Assembly (NCBI GenBank): GCA_951406725.2
Contig: OX597823.1
Span: 114,886,001 to 114,950,000 of the forward strand
Direction: 5' to 3'
DNA: 64,000 nt
Origin: Octopus vulgaris
Taxonomy: Eukaryota
Shown: piece after piece, positions 15,115-62,560 of the stretch
Layout of the letters: each line of letters opens with the position of its first letter
Numbering within the stretch: the stretch's first letter is position 1
The notes under the pieces: generated by a model
Databases searched by the model: none
The model's input: only the letters and a program-made list of their open reading frames with translations
Told to the model about the DNA's origin: nothing
Position numbers and translations under genes: made by a program

Positions 15115-15325
15115 GATAGATAGACAGATAGATAGATACATACATACACACATACATACATACATGACTATATTTTGCTTTATTTCCTCTGCTACTTTTC
15201 CTCTGTCAATCTGCGAGGTCTTGTGCGCATGTGCCAGTATCAGTGTGGTTTATGATCTTCTGCGTGGATGGAAAGGTGTCGTTGAAGAGACTGTATGTGT
15301 ATGTGCCAAGATTTATGTACCTCAT

Positions 15326-18137
15326 TGTATGTATGTATGTGTGTGTGTGTATGTATGTATGTATGTATGTATGTATGTATGTATGTATGTATGTATGTAT
15401 GTATGTATGTGTGTACGTATGTACGTATGTGTGTATGTACGTATGTACGTATGTACGTATGTATGTATGTATGTATGTATGTATGTATGTACGTATGTGT
15501 GTATGTATGTATGTATGTATGTATGTATGTATGTATGTACGTATGTGTGTATGTATGTATGTACGTATGTACGTATGTATGTATGTATGTATGTATGTGT
15601 GTATGTATGTGTGTATGTATGTATGTATGTATGTTTGTATGTATGTATGTGTGTATGTATGTGTGTATGTATGTGTGTATGTATGTGTGTATGTATGTAT
15701 GTATGTATGTATGTATGTATGTATGTATGTATGTATGTATGTATGTATGTATGTATGTATGTATGTATGTATGTATGTATGTATGTATGTGTGTATGTAT
15801 GTATGTATGTATGTATGTATGTATGTATGTATGTATGTATGTATGTATGTATGTATGTATGTATGTATGTGTGTATGTATGTATGTATGTATGTATGTAT
15901 GTATGTATGTATGTGTGTATGTATGTATGTATGTATGTATGTATGTATGTATGTATGTATGTATGTATGTATGTATGTATGTATGTATGTATGTATGTAT
16001 GTATGTGTGTATGTATGTATGTATGTATGTATGTATGTGTGTATGTATGTATGTATGTATGTATGTATGTATGTATGTATGTATGTATGTATGTATGTAT
16101 GTATGTATGTATGTATGTATGTATGTATGTATGTATGTATGTGTATGTATGTATGTATGTATGTATGTATGTATGTATGTATGTATGTATGTATGTGTAT
16201 GTATGTGTGTATGTATGTGTGTATGTATGTGTGTATGTATGTATGTATGTATGTATGTATGTATGTATGTATGTATGTATGTATGTATGTATGTATGTAT
16301 GTATGTGTGTATGTATGTATGTATGTATGTATGTATGTATGTATGTATGTATGTGTGTATGTATGTGTGTATGTATGTATGTATGTTTGTATGTATGTAT
16401 GTGTGTATGTATGTGTGTATGTATGTGTGTATGTATGTGTGTATGTATGTATGTATGTATGTATGTTTGTATGTATGTATGTGTGTATGTATGTGTGTAT
16501 GTATGTGTGTATGTATGTATGTATGTATGTATGTATGTCTGTATGTATGTATGTATGTGTGTATGTATGTATGTATGTGTGTATGTATGTATGTATGTGT
16601 GTATGTATGTGTGTATGTATGTATGTATGTATGTATGTATGTGTATGTATGTATGTATGTATGTGTGTATGTATGTATGTATGTATGTGTGTATGTATGT
16701 ATGTATGTATGTGTGTATGTATGTATGTATGTATGTGTATGTATGTATGTATGTATGTATGTATGTATGTATGTGTGTATGTATGTATGTATGTATGTAT
16801 GTATGTATGTATGTATGTATGTATGTATGTATGTATGTATGTGTGTATGTATGTATGTATTTGTGTATGTATGTATGTATGTATGTATGTATGTATGTAT
16901 GTATGTATGTATGTATGTGTGTATGTATGTGTGTATGTATGTGTGTATGTATGTATGTATGTATGTATGTATGTATGTATGTATGTATGTGTGTGTATGC
17001 ATGTATGTATGTATGTATGAATGTGTGTATGTATGTATGTATGTATGTATGTATGTATGTATGTATGTATGTATGTATGTATGTATGTATGTATGTATGT
17101 ATGTATGTATGTATGTATGTATGTGTGTATGTATGTATGTATGTATGTATGTATGTATGTATGTATGTATGTATGTGTATGTATGTGTGTATGTATGTGT
17201 ATGTATGTATGTATGTATGTATGTGTATGTATGTATGTATGTATGTGTGTATGTATGTATGTATGTATGTATGTATGTGTGTGTGTATGTATGTATGTAT
17301 GTATGTATGTGTGTATGTGTGTATGTATGTATGTATGTATGTGTGTATGTATGTATGTATGTATGTATGTGTGTATGTATGTATGTATGTATGTATGTGT
17401 GTATGTATGTATGTATGTATGTGTGTATGTGTGTATGTATGTATGTATGTATGTGTGTATGTATGTATGTATGTATGTATGTGTGTATGTATGTATGTAT
17501 GTATGTATGTATGTGTGTATGTATGTATGTATGTATGTATGTATGTATGTATGTGTGTATGTATGTATGTATGTATGTATGTGTGTATGTATGTATGTAT
17601 GTATGTGTGTATGTATGTGTGTATGTATGTGTGTATGTATGTATGTGTGTATGTATGTATGTATGTATGTATGTATGTATGTATGTATGTATGTATGTAT
17701 GTATGTATGTATGTATGTATGTATGTATGTATGTATGTATGTATGTATGTATGTATGTATGTATGTATGTATGTATGTATGTATGTATGTATGTATGTAT
17801 GTGTGTATGTATGTATGTATGTATGTATGTATGTGTGTATGTATGTGTGTATGTATGTATGTATGTATGTATGTATGTATGTATGTATGTTTGTATGTAT
17901 GTTTGTATGTTTGTATGTATGTGTGTATGTATGTGTGTATGTATGTATGTATGTATGTATGTATGTATGTTTGTATGTATGTATGTATGTATGTGTGTAT
18001 GTATGTATGTATGTATGTATGTATGTGTGTATGTATGTATGTATGTATGTATGTATGTATGTATGTATGTATGTTTGTATGTATGTTTGTATGTTTGTAT
18101 GTATGTGTGTATGTATGTGTGTATGTATGTACGTATG
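15326..18137. repeat. giant (TATG)n microsatellite, ~2.8 kb, with TGTG/TTTG/TACG variants
   Basis: Direct inspection; it explains the 400-990 aa MYVC/YIHT pseudo-ORFs. Confidence 0.98.
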
Positions 18138-18144
18138 AATGTAT

Positions 18145-18559
18145 TCTCTTTTCTCTTTTTACTTGTTTCGGTCATTTTGACTGCGGCCATGCTGGAGCAC
18201 CGCCTTTAATCGAGCAACTCGACCCCGGGACTTATTCTTTGGAATTCTAGTACTTATTTTATCAGTCCCTTTTGCCGAACCGCTAAGTTACGAGGATGTA
18301 AACACATCAGCATCGGTTGTCAAGTGATGTTGGGGGGACAAACACAGACACACAAACATATATACACACATACATTTATATATATAAACATATATACGAT
18401 GGGCTTCTTTCAGTTTCCGTCTACCAAATCCACTCACAAGGCTTTGGTCGGTCCGAGGCTATAGTAGAAGACATTTACCCAAGGTGCCACGCAGTGGGAC
18501 TGAACCCGGAACCATGTGGTTGGTAAGCAAGCTACTTACCATACAGCCACTCCTGCGCC
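18145..18559 (-). mobile_element. SINE family A, full length (tRNA-derived head, CORE-like ccttgggcaagt segment, internal microsatellite, (AAAAGAG)-like tail)
   Basis: Minus strand begins ggcgcaggagtggctgtatggtaag (A box) ... ggttcagtccc (B box-like). More than 10 homologues in the window. Inserted within (TATG)n. Confidence 0.9.
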
Positions 18560-23586: not shown

Positions 23587-23969
23587 CTAGCAGTATAGCC
23601 CAGCATTGCTCGAGTTTGTTTTCTTTTCGACCCTTTAGAATTGGAATTTTTGAAAAGTAAAAAGTTTGCATTATGCATTATTTCTGGTTGAAACACACGG
23701 AAAAATGGCGACACAGCAGTCAAGAAATCGTAAAAAATAGGTATTTTCGTAGAAAAAAAAGCACCTTTTCGATGTAAATAATTTTTGGTGTTAACATGGT
23801 CCGATTTGAATTTTTTCTTCTACGGAATGAAGAGCAAGTCTTCTTTTAACATACTCTCAATTTTGGTCAACTTGCGCCGCAGGGTCTCAGGGGAGATAGT
23901 ATTAGTTGAAGGCTACTAAACCTGCCACACACACACACACAGACAACTTCAGCTTTATATATATATAGA
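23587..23969 (-). mobile_element. non-autonomous Helitron-like element, copy 1
   Basis: Minus strand starts TC and ends CTAG, sits between A and T with no TSD, and has a subterminal GC hairpin remnant. Homologous to 24641-25035. Confidence 0.8.
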
Positions 23970-24640
23970 TTTATATTTAAATACGCTAAAATATATGGCG
24001 TATAAGATGGCTGGATCTTCAGCCACTGAAACGGATGAATTCTTTAATGTTTCAAGAGACACAGTTTCTAAAACCATGTTGGCATTCCAAAACCGAGATA
24101 AAACCAGTTTTGGTAAGTATAATTCTGGACGGAAGGCAAAGATCACAGAAAAAGACCGCGGAGCAATGAAACGTATTGTTTTAAAACCATCAAACTACAT
24201 CAAAAAAGTGACTCCAGAATTAAACAAACACTTTATTAAAACCTGTATCAAGCAAAAGCCAATTGTCATGAGTTCCCAAAAGCTAGATACATGGGAGAGC
24301 TGCAAGTGATGCTACGCCTGTCAGAAGTAGTCAAAGGCTCTGACACACCGTTCTTCCCACTTCGGAGCGAGTTCATTTCCTGAAACAATCCAAATAAAAA
24401 TTCAAACATGAGTGTTTGTATATTATGGAGGAGAATTGTGAATTATGAATTGAGTTTGTCATCCATACAAAACAATTCTTTTGGCCCTTTAGTTTTTCTT
24501 TAGGATATTGTGAACGCCAAGGATGATCGGAGTACTTTGACTGGTTATGTCCATGCTATGGCGTAAAAATTGTTATTCGATGCTAGCATTTTATTGTCGA
24601 ACGATAATACACCGATTCACATGACTAATATTATTCAACA

Positions 24641-25035
24641 CTAGCAGTATCGCCCGGCGTTGCTCGAGTTTGTTTCGACCCTTTAGAATTGGAATTTTTG
24701 AAAAGTAAAAATTTTGCATTATGTAGCTTGTTATTCTCTTTAACTGAACATTTTTCTGGTTGAAATACACCGAAAAATGGCTACACAGCAGTAAAAAAAT
24801 AGTAAAAAATAGGGATTTTCATAGAAAAAAAGCACCTTTTTGATGTAAATAATTTTTGGTGTTAACATGGCCCGATTTGAATTTTTTCTTCTATGGAAGG
24901 AAGAGCAAGCCCTCTTCTATCATACTCTCAATTTTGGTCAACTTGCGCCGCAGGGTCTTGTTGGAGGTGATAGTGTTATTTGAAGGTTACCAAACCTGCC
25001 ATACACAGACAACTTCAGCTTTATATAGAGAGAGA
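24641..25035 (-). mobile_element. non-autonomous Helitron-like element, copy 2
   Basis: Same termini. Removal restores the Tc1 frame att att caa ca|t tgg tac (IIQHWY). Confidence 0.85.
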
Positions 25036-25385
25036 TTGGTACAGAGAGTACAGAAAGTAGAGTAGAACACTTGGATTGGCCCCCGTAATCTATATAATCG
25101 AACATTAATGGTGCCTTTTAGAACAGCGAGGAGATGCTTCCCTCACTTCATCGCTGACAGAGATAAAGCAGGTTTTACTTGAGACATATCTCAAAATACT
25201 CCTAGCAAGCATTCAGAACTTGTACAAGTCAGTTCCTCTAAGTATGGAAACTGTGATTAATGCCAGAGGTGGACCTACTCCATATCAAAGAATAAAACTT
25301 CCATTTGACAAGATGTTTTTATTTTGTTCAACCCTGAACTTAAATATTAATCGTCCCTATATTCACACTATGTATCTTATTACAT

Positions 25386-25694: not shown

Positions 25695-25902
25695 AACGGG
25701 AAGCTTTATGAAAATAAACAAAAGACGAAGGCAGGTGGAAAACAAACGAACAATTGTATTAGTATGGCGCTCAGGAAATATAAATAAAACAAGTCTTTAA
25801 CGTTTCGAGCCTACGCTCTTCAACAGAAAGATACACAGAGAGAGAAAAACACAGAAAGAAGGAGAGAAAAAAAATGCGTGCAGTAGCTAACGAATCAACA
25901 TA
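25695..25902 (-). mobile_element. (TA)n-flanked ~200-bp cassette (family H2) with minimal hammerhead-like motif at 25795-25830
   Basis: Minus strand cttt-CTGTTGA-a-gagc-gtag-gctc-GAAAC-GTT-aaag. Homologous to 53727-53922. Confidence 0.7.
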
Positions 25903-25907
25903 CATAC

Positions 25908-25955
<48 letters not shown>

Positions 25956-25979
25956 ATATATATACATACATATATATAT

Positions 25980-26030
<51 letters not shown>

Positions 26031-26227
26031 AAATATTACATTGTGTAAAAGGGCTTAGTAAAATAAATTACTTTGCCACATACTGAACTCATTAGAAATA
26101 GCAGCCAAAAAAGATTTTCTAGCCACTTCTAATACTTAAAGAAAATTTCTCTCAGATAGTGTTTACTCAAAATAACCCACGAAGATATGGGGGTAAAAAC
26201 ATTAAAAAATCACAAGTGCAAAGATTA

Positions 26228-26289
26228 TTTGAGAACGTACGTTTCTAGATCAGCCAAATACAATTCGACATTTCTTTCGTCAGCCCAAA
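26228..26289 (-). ncRNA. type I hammerhead ribozyme candidate (left arm)
   Basis: Exact reverse complement of 27039-27100. Confidence 0.7.
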
Positions 26290-27038
26290 ATTTTCTTAAT
26301 TCGGATTTGGAAACACTGAAAGTAGGAGCATACCCTTTTGGCGACTTTTCACCTCAGAAGATCCGTTCAAACTAACAGTGCCAACAAATTCAAAATATGC
26401 AAGCGAAGAATTCCTGCTCTCCCCTTCCACCCACGTGGGTCAGACTAGTAAACACCATATTTTATCGGTGAAAACCGAGGCTTTAAACAGAGAGAAATGA
26501 ATTATAATTTCAACAATTGAGGGTAAAATTAATTAGTTATTAATCAATTTCACCAAGTATTCAGTATGTAAAGGGACCATTTAAGGCGAATTCAAAATAT
26601 TACATTGTGTAAAAGGGCTTAGTAAAATAAATTACTTTGCCACCTACTGAACTCATTAGAAATAGCAGCCAAAAAAGATTTTCTAGCCACTTCTAATACT
26701 TAAAGAAAATTTCTCTCAGATATATAATATTTTGAATTCGCCTTAAATGGTTCCTTTACATACTGAATACTTGGTGAAATTGATTAATAACTAATTAATT
26801 TTACCCTCAATTGTTGAAATTATAATTCATTTCTCTCTGTTTAAAGCCTCGGTTTTCACCGATAAAATATGGTGTTTACTAGTCTGACCCACGTGGGTGG
26901 AAGGGGGAGAGCAGGAATTCTTCGCTTGCATATTTTGAATTTGTTGGCACTGTTAGTTTGAACGGATCTTCTGAGGTGAAAAGTCGCCAAAAGGGTATGC
27001 TCCTACTTTCAGTGTTTCCAAATCCGAATTAAGAAAAT

Positions 27039-27100
27039 TTTGGGCTGACGAAAGAAATGTCGAATTGTATTTGGCTGATCTAGAAACGTACGTTCTCAAA
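27039..27100 (+). ncRNA. type I hammerhead ribozyme candidate (right arm)
   Basis: tttggg-CTGACGA-aagaaatgtcgaattgtatttggctgatcta-GAAAC-gtac-GTT-ctcaaa. 6-bp stem I, imperfect stem II (aga/tct, gtcgaa/tttggc), palindromic stem III AACGTACGTT. Confidence 0.72.
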
Positions 27101-27380
27101 TAATCTTTGCACTTGTGATTTTTTAATGTTTTTACCCCCATACCTTCGTGGGTTATTTTGAGTAAACACTATCTGAGAGAAATTTTCTTTAAGTATTAGA
27201 AGTGGCTAGAAAATCTTTTTGGCTGCTATTTCTAATGAGTTCAGTATGTGGCAAAGTAATTTATTTTACTAAGCCCTTTTACACAATGTAATATTTTGAA
27301 TTCGCCTTAAATGGTCCCTTTACATACTGAATACTTGGTGAAATTGATTAATAACTAATTAATTTTACCCTCAATTGTTG

Positions 27381-27434
<54 letters not shown>

Positions 27435-27436
27435 CA

Positions 27437-27472
<36 letters not shown>

Positions 27473-27473
<1 letters not shown>

Positions 27474-27925
27474 AATTAGAGATAAAACCACTATTAGGCA
27501 ACTCAAACAGTGATAGACATAAACCAATACATAAATAACAAAAATATAAATATAATTAATATAATATATAATATATATATAAAATATAAATTTTAAAATT
27601 TTACTTTTCAAATTTAAAATTTTTTATATTTTTTAATTTTTTAATTTTAATTTTTTTTTAATAAACCAAAAAGTATTAAAAAAAGACAAATATAATAATT
27701 TAAAAATATAAAAATTTAAAAATTTTAATTTTAATATATATATTATATATTATATTAATTATATTTATATTATTTGTTATTTATGTATTGGTTAATATCT
27801 ATCACTGTTTGAGTTGCATAATAGTGGTTTTATCTCTAATTTAATTTATATTTATACCGTGAAATTTGATTTAATCCTAAATCTAATTTTTCCCTGTAAG
27901 TTTGGATATACTCCCTAATATTATA
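27473..27925. repeat. AT-rich foldback element plus tail, bounded by (TA)n/(GATA)n
   Basis: aaattagagataaaaccactatt... (27473) pairs with ...aatagtggttttatctctaattt (27842). Tail 27859-27925 matches 1100-1168 (reverse complement) and 38340-38366. Confidence 0.85.
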
Positions 27926-33138: not shown

Positions 33139-33720
33139 GGTAACAAAAGTAAATTATTATTTACTTATTTATTAATTATTATAATTTACTTTTATTACCC
33201 TATTTACTATGTTTAAATATTGCTCGATAAATTTGCTCGTAAATTTTTATCGGCATCCTCTCTGTTCGCCGGGTATGATTTGCGTCTGCGCACTGGTCTG
33301 AAAAGTTAGGGTATACAGCTCGTTAGATTTGCATTGCTTCTTGCGGTATGTACAGCTCGGATTACAAAGGCTTCCTGCTGACGATTCTGGCCTTGGCAGA
33401 TAAATTCTATTCATTTGTTAAAAAAAAAGATGAAACTGCAGTACAGGATTAGCTGAGATGGTAAACGTTTTTGATTTTCTTTCCATTTCATGAATTTATC
33501 CCCTTTTTGTGTATCTAGCACTCGGTTCTTTATTTTGAAGCCTAGCACTCGGTTCTTTATTTTGAAGCCTTTTAATGTATATATATATATATATATATAC
33601 GTATAAAACTTAATTGGAAGATGATGCGTAGCGTTCAGTCATATAATGGCATAATATATATATATGCATATATACATAAGTGTATATACATACATCTATA
33701 CGTGTATATATATATATATA

Positions 33721-33926
33721 TGTGACCTCGAGTGTACCGTTGGCGATTTTTTTCCCTCTGTCTTCCCTTCTCTGGATCTTTCCTTCTCCTATGTTTCCGA
33801 CGAAGAGCTCCGCTCGGAACGTTAAACCCTCCTTCTTTCCTTCTTTCCTGAGCGTCCAATAATACTATATTTGTTCCATGTCCTCGCGTTGTTGTGTTTT
33901 TTTTGTGCTTTCTTGTTTGGATTAAC
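33721..33926 (+). mobile_element. (TA)n-flanked H1 cassette with minimal hammerhead-like motif at 33793-33827
   Basis: gttt-CCGACGA-a-gagc-tcc-gctc-GGAAC-GTT-aaac; stems intact, two core substitutions. Ends ggattaac(ta)n. Confidence 0.72.
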
Positions 33927-33949
33927 TATATATAAATATATATATATAT

Positions 33950-38178: not shown

Positions 38179-38213
<35 letters not shown>

Positions 38214-38217
<4 letters not shown>

Positions 38218-38372
38218 TTAGAGATAAAACCACTATTAGGCAAATCAAACAATGAAAAACATAAGCCAATACATAAAATTAATTAATTTATATTATTTTA
38301 AATATATATCAAAAGTATTAATTTTAATAAAAGATAATGAGTAAGTTTGGATTTATTTCCTAATATTTTATT
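38214..38372 (+). repeat. single-arm copy of the 27473 family between (TA)n tracts
   Basis: aaattagagataaaaccactattaggcaaatcaaacaatga ... gtaagtttggattta. Confidence 0.75.
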
Positions 38373-43236: not shown

Positions 43237-43844
43237 AAAGCATGAATATTTTAGACAGAGAAAGCTTACAGTTTACAAGGAACAAAATTCATAGTTTATA
43301 AGGAATAAAATAGCAGAATAAAGGAGTAAACAGAAGAAAAAAGAGTAAAAGCAGTTAGAAGACTACAGGCAGGAGAATAATGTTCACAATTCATCTTTTC
43401 CAGAGGATTTGGATGTTGATTGGTACTTCTATGAAGAACCGATATTGATGGCATACACCATACCCGCAACTCTAGCACTACAACCAGAATTAACCAAGAT
43501 ACAAACATCTCGAAATGAAGACCGAAATGTAACTGAGGCGAATGTTGATATTAATAGCACCAGCACTAATACTAATATTAATAACTCTTAGACGATTACT
43601 ACCACTACTACTAATACTACTAATATTATTAACATTAATAATTATAATAATACCATCAGTACTACTACTAATAATAATAGTAATAATGATAATAATAATA
43701 CAAACCAATCCTCAAACATTTGATTTTAACTTCTTCATTAATAATACTACATCTTGCCTTTCCACTAACAACACTCGTAGAACTGATAGCTGCAACTGCC
43801 GATCCACGCAGAAATGCCCATTGCGAACCCACTTTAGTAGGTTT

Positions 43845-44218
43845 GGACTGGAAGCACTCCGTCGGTTACGACGATGAGGGTTCCGGTTGATCCGATCAAC
43901 GGAACAGCCTGCTCGTGAAATTAACGTGTAAGTGGCTGAGCACTCCAAAGACACGTGTACCCTTAACGTAGTTCTCGGGAATATTCAGCGTGACACAGAG
44001 AGTGACAAGGCCGGCCCTTTGAAATACAGGTACAACAGAAACAGGAAGTAAGAGTGAGAGAAAGTTGTGGTGAAAGAGTACAACAGGGCTCGCCACCACC
44101 CCCTGCCGGAGCCTCGTGGAGCTTTAGGTGTTTTCGCTCAATAAACACTCACAACGCCCGGTCTGGGAATCGAAACCGCGAGTCCGCTGCCCTAACCACT
44201 TGGCCATTGCGCCTCCAC
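43845..44218 (-). mobile_element. SINE family C, tail type 1, inserted in the PLE ORF
   Basis: Near-identical to 28980-29370 apart from a head deletion; TSD tagtaggttt at 43835-43844 and 44221-44230. Confidence 0.92.
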
Positions 44219-53691: not shown

Positions 53692-53725
<34 letters not shown>

Positions 53726-53726
53726 T

Positions 53727-53922
53727 CACGGTGCAAAATTACACAAAAAGAAACAAAAGACGAAGAACAGAGACAGGTGAAGAAACAACAGACAAGGTGT
53801 ATTAGACGTCCAGGTAAATTGGAGAAGTCTTTGATGTTTCAAGTCTACGCTCTTCAGCAGAAAGGAATGAGAGGAGAAAACAGATGGACAGAGAGAGAAA
53901 ATGGAAAGGAAAAAAACAATCA
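53727..53922 (-). mobile_element. microsatellite-flanked H2 cassette with hammerhead-like motif at 53829-53864
   Basis: Minus strand cttt-CTGCTGA-a-gagc-gtag-actt-GAAAC-ATC-aaag; homologous to 25695-25902. Confidence 0.62.
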
Positions 53923-54128
53923 TTCTTTCGTTCTCTCTCTCTATCTCTCTCTTTTTCTCTTTCCCCTCTCTGCCCCCTCCCTCTCTCTCTCTCTCTCTCT
54001 TGATATATTTATATAGACCGACATCTGTGAGTTACGAGATATACACCTTAAACAAAGGCTATATTACATACCGCAGAAGATAAATATTTGATTTACTAAA
54101 ATTACTGCTTCTTCCAGAGAGGACATAG

Positions 54129-61914: not shown

Positions 61915-62560
61915 GCAATGTTCTTTTAAAAATTATAAAATGCGGAAGTTTTTGTGCCATCAGCGCAGCATTCTAATACAACTGTGTAGTGTGTCTTTTC
62001 ATTGCCACATGTTTTAACAGTCATAGTTTAGCACCCTTGGATTCTACCGTCTTGTTTGATGGTGCATCAGATTTCAAAGGGACTTCCTCCATATTTGCTT
62101 TCTGTGAAAGTTCAAAATTAACTTCTTTTCATGTATTAAGGACATTCCAGTGGAACTTAATAGTTTGATCTTCGTATTCAGGGGATATTTTTGGTCCTAT
62201 TCTTGTCCTAGCCCTCAAACAGAGATTATGTCTCCTCATAAATTTGGAACACCATGATGATGGCCCTTTAAAATCATTGATATCTCTGTTCATTCCAATA
62301 AGTCTTGAATGATACACAATCATTTTAGTGGATACTGAAAAGCCCGATCTTCTTTGGTCTAAAACACAGGATTTTTAATCCTTCTTCTATTTCAGGTCAC
62401 CTTACAACTCCCCCGCGGAGGCAGTGCTTGCTGCGTTTAGCAGCTTTCAGCTGTTCCTGTTTCCTCCAAGTCCTTACTATTTTCTCGGTTGTAGCGGACC
62501 TAAATACTGAGCAGTTGCCCTATTACCGTGGTCTTTTGCGTATGCTACATCTAGTTTAAT
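61915..62560 (-). mobile_element. pogo-family transposase pseudogene fragment (Brinker-type DBD, CENP-B HTH, start of DDE_1)
   Basis: KLDVAYAKDHGNRATA; DFKGPSSWCSKFMRRHNLCLRARTRIGPKISPEYEDQTIKFH; ANMEEVPLKSDAPSNKTVESKGAKTMTVKTCGNEKTHYTVVLECCADGTK. Confidence 0.88.

Follow-up and report, generated by a model that had tools for sequence, protein, structure and literature searches.

The stretch of Octopus vulgaris DNA analysed here, a window of 64 kb (64,000 nt), is microsatellite-rich eukaryotic DNA, 4% of which consists of runs of at least six TA repeats. Inside one TA microsatellite, at 26029-27388, lie two inverted arms of a non-coding 564-bp repeat joined head-to-head.

For purposes of description the repeat is treated as a 564-nt circle on which 26029 is position 1, with consecutive blocks A, B and C (primed when reverse-complemented). 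The left target array is (TA)n/(TACA)n (25896-26028), its final 41 nt being pure TA. It is followed by the left arm (26029-26722, minus strand; 694 bp, 1.23 units), which runs through circle positions 1-564 and then 1-130, giving the order A-B-C-A; on the strand carrying the hammerhead-like motif, here the minus strand, the block order is A'-C'-B'-A' and the 3' end, at 26029, adjoins (TA)n. A 2-nt TA filler (26723-26724) separates it from the right arm (26725-27388, plus strand; 664 bp, 1.18 units), which on the minus strand from 27388 covers circle positions 475-564, 1-564 and 1-10. Both arms stop at TA, and the TATATA of the junction is made up of the left arm's last TA, the filler, and the right arm's first TA. 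The right arm comprises, on the plus strand, an A' stub (26725-26734), C' (26735-26824), B' (26825-27169), A' (27170-27298) and a second C' (27299-27388), the last being a 90-nt one-sided extension by which the right end outruns the left. The right target array (27389-27471) begins with 33 nt of pure TA.

A comparison of the arms indicates that both fit a single 564-bp period, with three substitutions (26644, 26752 and 27143) and two one-base homopolymer indels relative to the circle in 1358 bp. The left arm has a single mismatch, at 26644; the right arm has the substitutions at 27143 and 26752, has lost one base in a homopolymer near 27220, and has an additional G near 26907. The fold-back is asymmetric, leaving about 120 nt unpaired at its centre (116 nt in one computation). 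Neither arm is a substring of the other and both must therefore derive from a longer template; their union measures 784 nt (1.39 units) and contains one predicted cut site. The partial tandem generates pLTR-like direct repeats, A being repeated in the left arm and C in the right. On the hammerhead strand, which was taken as the RNA strand from the motif and the folding asymmetry, both arms have their 3' ends on the outside, against (TA)n, and their truncated 5' ends at the central junction: an inverted 5'-truncated copy is joined head-to-head. The flanks outside the TA runs gave no BLAST match to each other and so are not mirror images. We conclude that the insertion is real, likely recent and well preserved.

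A preliminary description of this DNA had read the region as A-B-C-A flipped at a TATATA junction into C'-B'-A'-C', with nearly identical arms, each longer than one unit, which start at different points of one circle and merge outwardly into (TA)n. Mapping of the arms to the 564-nt circle, with starts at positions 1 and 475, bears this out in all but one detail: the right arm opens with the 10-nt A' stub before C'-B'-A'-C'.

The unit has a G+C content of 34%, and its longest stop-free frame on the circle is 71 amino acids, in place of the open reading frame with reverse transcriptase (RT) and GIY-YIG domains that marks an autonomous EN+ Penelope element (PLE). Among 141 reading frames of the window (the 140 longest of 197 non-repetitive frames of at least 55 amino acids, plus 25109-25378) no Pfam match to RT or GIY-YIG was obtained, and no autonomous partner element was found in the frames scanned.

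Other repeats lie in the vicinity. Four diverged fragments (25696-25899, 53720-53930, 33700-33930 and 900-1100; mean column identity 61%) belong to a second family of repeats, whose core (CUGNNGA-A, a 4-bp helix II and GAAAC-GU) resembles a minimal hammerhead. At least three of the four end in TA on the 3' side of the hammerhead strand, and the copy at 25.7 kb occupies the same TA array as the 26029-27388 insertion; these fragments are likely to be pLTR remnants of another PLE family. Directly to the right of the insertion is a fold-back element (27465-27850) with inverted arms of ~140 bp, 87-94% complementary, and an almost GC-free centre; a single arm 79% identical to its own is found between TA runs at 38207-38327. 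This element is either MITE-like or another head-to-head insertion. The broken reading frames at about 23920-25310 gave no Pfam match at E ≤ 0.01; they look like a decayed Tc1-type transposase, with putative motifs at 23920-24309 and near 25250-25290. A fragment of a Tc5/pogo-type transposase DNA-binding domain (PF03221, E 4.8e-07) is present at 62132-62374 on the minus strand, and nearly 3 kb of TATG/TGTG-type simple repeats extend over about 15300-18150, with a GC skew of 0.99 at 16-18 kb. The window also contains SINE-like repeats, perhaps of octopus type.

Hammerhead-like motif and predicted RNA fold

Each arm carries one type I hammerhead-like motif, at 26228-26289 on the minus strand of the left arm (predicted cut after 26234) and at 27039-27100 on the plus strand of the right arm (predicted cut after 27094), in agreement with the cut positions, type and palindromic helix III given in the preliminary description. 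The motif is laid out as a 6-bp helix I, the core CUGACGA, a palindromic helix III of 4+4 nt and a GUU cleavage site. Helix II has a 3-bp base with an unpaired A on either side, constituting an A-A mismatch, and a longer arm beyond. With two descriptors these were the only two matches in the 64-kb window, and one of 20,000 shuffles of the unit matched, a figure that is optimistic since the descriptor was written after the motif had been seen. Rfam reported no hammerhead, either at the gathering score or at E ≤ 5. Its matches to mir-2513 and rliE, far below the respective cut-offs, were rejected; the mir-2513 match spans the DNA inversion.

The two copies of the motif are predicted to co-fold via helix III, as expected of dimer-type motifs (PMC4209133). 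Because there is only one hammerhead-like motif per strand, the locus itself cannot release a unit-length monomer; it lacks the arrangement of an active retrozyme copy, in which two or more units with complete hammerheads follow one another on one strand. As in PLE-dependent elements, the predicted type I motif, on which Rfam is silent, belongs to the sense strand and to the terminal repeat region, 255-345 nt from the ends. Published PLE hammerheads cleave poorly or need protein (PMC11167929, PMC4209133).

Folded as a circle the hammerhead strand yielded -153.4 kcal/mol versus -115.5 ± 5.7 in 60 shuffles (z -6.7), and the opposite strand a z of -1.8 (40 shuffles). Among 26 control strands taken from the window, each compared with eight shuffles, one attained z -6.0, so the unit's value is extreme, not unique. 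The control stretch 43429-43992 (minus strand), which folds far better than its shuffles (z about -6.0, eight shuffles), is perhaps another structured repeat. Family variants from the four sequencing runs treated in the next section were placed on the predicted structure, 26 of the 27 variant rows being used; 26644 was omitted since the unit employed already had the common base. Ten of the 26 keep a predicted pair, 11 fall at unpaired positions and five break a pair, against 10.6 ± 2.1 expected to do so (P about 0.007); one converts a G-U pair of helix I to A-U. In terms of this model, family variants tend to spare the predicted pairs of the hammerhead strand, and the RNA would be highly self-paired, as is that of retrozymes.

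Circle 470-357 and 117-192 are predicted to pair into a long rod that ends in the hammerhead and is followed by hairpins. A predicted 11-bp A'/C' stem encloses the left start point, while the right start point falls within the last, weak hairpin. When the unit is written linearly as B'A'C' from near circle 471, all predicted helices of at least 4 bp are nested, and ring closure is therefore not needed for the fold. Since the rod would also hold together the ends of a hammerhead-cut monomer, the fold favours neither a linear nor a circular RNA.

The repeat family in public sequencing runs

The unit is found wholly or partly in 20 of 24 listed public runs (nine studies, four organism labels), the best of which contains a fraction of 0.63 of its words. 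One unit (26159-26722) was compared with the contigs of four runs, which may be from other individuals or species; 2652, 1782, 388 and 163 contigs matched, and all 30 bins were covered. In each of the four runs the unit forms a high-copy family.

The contigs listed are at most 135 nt long and display the three block junctions separately, so that no single molecule spans a whole 564-bp period. The A-B join occurs in four of four runs, B-C is bridged in run X5 (record 31), and C-A in run X13 (record 16). Contigs that continue into dissimilar sequence make up a share of 0-0.01; inspected by eye, the longer of the loose ends within B are diverged forms of the same sequence. Since all three joins occur and run-on is so rare, the circular block order belongs to the family. 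The preliminary description had set its reading against copies fixed to an ORF-bearing PLE; in the four runs the unit shows no prevalent extension into a long coding element.

Five bases (G26607, G26609, T26482, C26683 and C26690) are rare in the four runs and common to all local copies, which points to one template or one young subfamily. At 26604-26613 (circle 12-21) most copies in the four runs have A at 26607 and 26609, where the window copies have G at both. With the A variants, a self-complementary run of TA near the left terminus resembles a TATA box; by analogy with the pLTRs of Adineta (PMC3846280) this could be a promoter, or else a self-target site.

In two contigs of X13 a loose end flanked by TA lies at 26510, no more than 7 nt from the right-hand terminus, a hint that the right-hand end recurs in the family. 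Summed contig depth, which cannot serve to rank parts of the unit, rises 15- to 90-fold between bins 26463 and 26501 in all four runs. Such a step is expected if many copies end there, 5'-truncated, and diverged B blocks would give the same picture; it is at best a weak hint. No strand-switch joint is among the joints listed for the four runs, for which a single unit was compared; this speaks neither for nor against the inversion, because rare forms drop out of contigs. None of the 24 runs listed is an RNA run containing the unit, the RNA labels being guesses, and for the same reason X13 is not proof of expression. Two exact-pattern scans of metagenome contigs gave no match.

Comparison with Penelope elements and retrozymes

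The features of the locus have close counterparts among PLEs. PMC8557442 describes PLEs with partial tandems, an adjacent inverted 5'-truncated copy, a one-sided tail of 30-40 bp, a bias towards (TA)n and non-autonomous members forming multimers, and its File S1 includes octopus Naiad and Hydra elements with (TA)n targets. The head-to-head form was the most frequent one observed in PMC3846280, where self-priming was proposed. In common with the complex EN+ PLE insertions of these two reports, the locus has a partial tandem, pLTR-like repeats, an inverted 5'-truncated head-to-head copy, an extension at one end only, a (TA)n target lacking a readable target duplication and a hammerhead in the repeat. 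It differs from them in having no RT/GIY-YIG frame, in that both arms exceed one unit, and in the length of the extension (90 nt, not 30-40). Biochemical work on the anole PLE (PMC11167929) provides a parallel for the staggered ends: the purified protein cuts AT-rich DNA and extends it on both strands in vitro, and reverse transcription begins at two internal RNA sites, the gap between which corresponds to the genomic tail. By analogy, the 90-nt C' extension is likely to be the equivalent of the PLE tail. The anole enzyme uses mainly uncut RNA and hammerhead cleavage is not needed.

Hydra-clade PLEs (Hydra-1_Obim, Penelope-13_HM) share with the locus the unpaired flanks of helix II, the palindromic helix III, GUU, the sense-strand position and (TA)n. 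By our own count of File S2 of Craig 2021 (PMC8557442), helix II is flanked by an unpaired base on either side in 15 of 25 Hydra-clade elements, and nine of the 25 are cut after GUU; (TA)n is given as the target in 26 of the 27 elements of the Hydra sheet, and the motif is on the sense strand, mostly near the 3' end. In Penelope-13_HM a truncated inverted copy is attached at the 5' end and each strand bears a hammerhead (PMC8557442), the same two-strand arrangement as at the locus. On the other hand, the helix II mismatches of File S2 are mostly U-U, with no A-A among its rows, whereas the locus has A-A, along with a longer helix II arm and a motif 255-345 nt from the ends. The likeness to the Hydra clade is one of hammerhead shape and target, in an element lacking RT. 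Five 16-18-nt probes from the unit were absent from the Craig 2021 supplement (PMC8557442), and the 3' end of Hydra-1_Obim, as compared by eye, is unlike the unit. A 10-mer (26920-26929) and an 11-mer (26993-27003) of B' recur by eye within the first 60 nt of the Hydra-1_Obim consensus in the opposite order, either by chance or as a shared cis motif.

The unit also resembles animal non-LTR retrozymes (PMC7229834; preprint 10.64898/2026.07.22.740005), being short, non-coding, low in GC (34%), strongly self-paired by prediction, high in copy number and periodic, with one type I hammerhead; its 564 bp fall within the 51-972 bp range of the preprint, which derives animal retrozymes from PLE pLTRs. 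Mobilisation by PLEs is proposed for retrozymes as it is here. In contrast to these elements the locus, known here from DNA, is inverted and lacks two same-strand hammerheads, and so falls outside the preprint's definition of an active copy. Non-autonomous Chlamys elements such as MRC1 (PMC8557442) are likewise non-coding PLE dependants with pLTRs and head-to-tail multimers, but are algal, mostly have no canonical hammerhead and have known autonomous partners.

The literature searched contained no description of this family, though Repbase/Dfam, the supplement to the Octopus vulgaris repeat annotation (PMC13282606) or the preprint supplements may include it. We regard the locus as a new, likely non-autonomous member of a PLE/retrozyme-like family in an already documented arrangement, departing from the published cases in its 90-nt tail, in both arms being longer than one unit, and in its A-A hammerhead variant.

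Origin of the insertion

The locus is probably the product of a recent single insertion into (TA)n, made by the enzymes of an autonomous PLE, which would have cut the target and used each of the two resulting ends to copy an uncut, longer-than-unit linear RNA of the non-coding repeat. The RNA would have come from a source locus with the unit in partial or full tandem, transcribed on the hammerhead strand, and a PLE GIY-YIG endonuclease would have cut both strands of the (TA)n array. Each free 3' end may then have primed reverse transcription internally, the left one at circle 1 and the right one at circle 475, leaving the 90-nt one-sided tail. Both cDNAs would pass through the uncut hammerhead, stopping after 694 and 664 nt, and be joined via TA microhomology with the element's 5' ends left in the middle. 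Several points count against the PLE reading: no partner enzyme was found in the reading frames scanned, the tail is 90 nt long, the hammerhead has an A-A mismatch, and Rfam is silent.

The preliminary description had proposed a recent retrozyme-like insertion derived from RNA, with reverse transcription proceeding more than once round a ribozyme-generated circle or along a tandem pLTR. A recent RNA-derived insertion of this type is supported, and its template was indeed longer than one unit, neither arm being contained in the other. The tandem alternative gains support as well. The circle is not needed, because an uncut linear RNA of 784 nt with one hammerhead accounts for both arms. As to the "circular permutation" of that description, the staggered starts are real, and likely mark two reverse-transcription start sites, not random permutation; the former are preferred because the arm starts match the known PLE tail (PMC11167929).

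The same PLE-driven insertion could have had as template a 564-nt circular RNA produced by hammerhead cleavage and ligation, as in non-LTR retrozymes, with each cDNA going 1.2 times round. In its favour, each arm is longer than one unit and runs through the predicted cut site with no scar, and the predicted rod, ending in the hammerhead, would place the cut ends side by side. Mussel retrozymes yield abundant, highly self-paired circles (PMC7229834), although those cloned from invertebrates, at 170-400 nt, are shorter than the 564-nt unit. The route was proposed for PLEs in 2014, with circles as templates for more-than-unit copying (PMC4209133, which also reports dual hammerheads 100-700 bp apart on opposite strands); yet PLE insertion in vitro is unaffected by hammerhead mutants (PMC11167929), and of nine predicted Xenopus retrozyme dimers eight failed to cleave (preprint 10.64898/2026.07.22.740005). 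Given a single hammerhead per strand at the locus, no predicted helix of 4 bp or more requiring ring closure, and the linear 784-nt RNA explaining both arms, we consider a circular template unlikely; it is similarly doubtful that high-copy, ribozyme-made 564-nt RNA circles were copied by a Penelope enzyme from both cut microsatellite ends at two fixed start sites. The near-identity of the arms and their common rare variants would be explained directly if one 784-nt cDNA, begun at circle 475, had snapped back around a loop of ~120 nt to serve as its own template, 90 nt of the left end then being removed at an AT-rich site on integration. Self-priming has been proposed for PLE inversions (PMC3846280) and the tail has been ascribed to endonuclease resolution (PMC8557442), but the turn would offer only ~2 nt of pairing with a terminal mismatch, the junction differs from the short palindrome of PMC3846280, and the trimming is an additional step. 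This makes snap-back a rather improbable route. A single locus does not separate a linear multimer from a circle, nor two primed cDNAs from one snap-back cDNA.

Two separate insertions of one young subfamily, back to back in the same (TA)n array with the central TA as left-over target, would have a strand-symmetric target in a region that has accepted further inserts (25696-25899 and 27465-27850). They would have to lie within 2 bp of each other, each exceed one unit and each carry the same rare variants, and we give this very little credence. An inversion created in the reads or in assembly, or by simple DNA fold-back duplication of a single insertion, is just as hard to credit: two of the five arm differences are homopolymer indels, as in long-read errors, but the flanks are not mirrored, and copying of one arm cannot yield the other when neither is a substring of the other. 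For this last reason a plain fold-back copy or mirror artefact of a single arm is excluded. A MITE or other DNA transposon was rejected, the arms being permuted multimers with a strand-specific fold and variant pattern, and a tandem satellite formed by unequal crossover explains neither the inversion nor the (TA)n ends.

The mechanism of tandem and inverted PLE insertions and the role of their hammerheads are stated to be open questions (PMC8557442). The arrangement seen here is already documented and the locus alone changes little. It is a convenient test case, in that the family is short, young and high in copy number and both arms extend past the ribozyme site and beyond one unit. Transcription through the locus would yield about 570 bp of double-stranded RNA, like any inverted PLE copy. 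Were the template a circle after all, the locus would be a frozen record of rolling reverse transcription upon it, and would tie the retrozyme circles of animals directly to the unexplained tandem and inverted insertions of Penelope elements.
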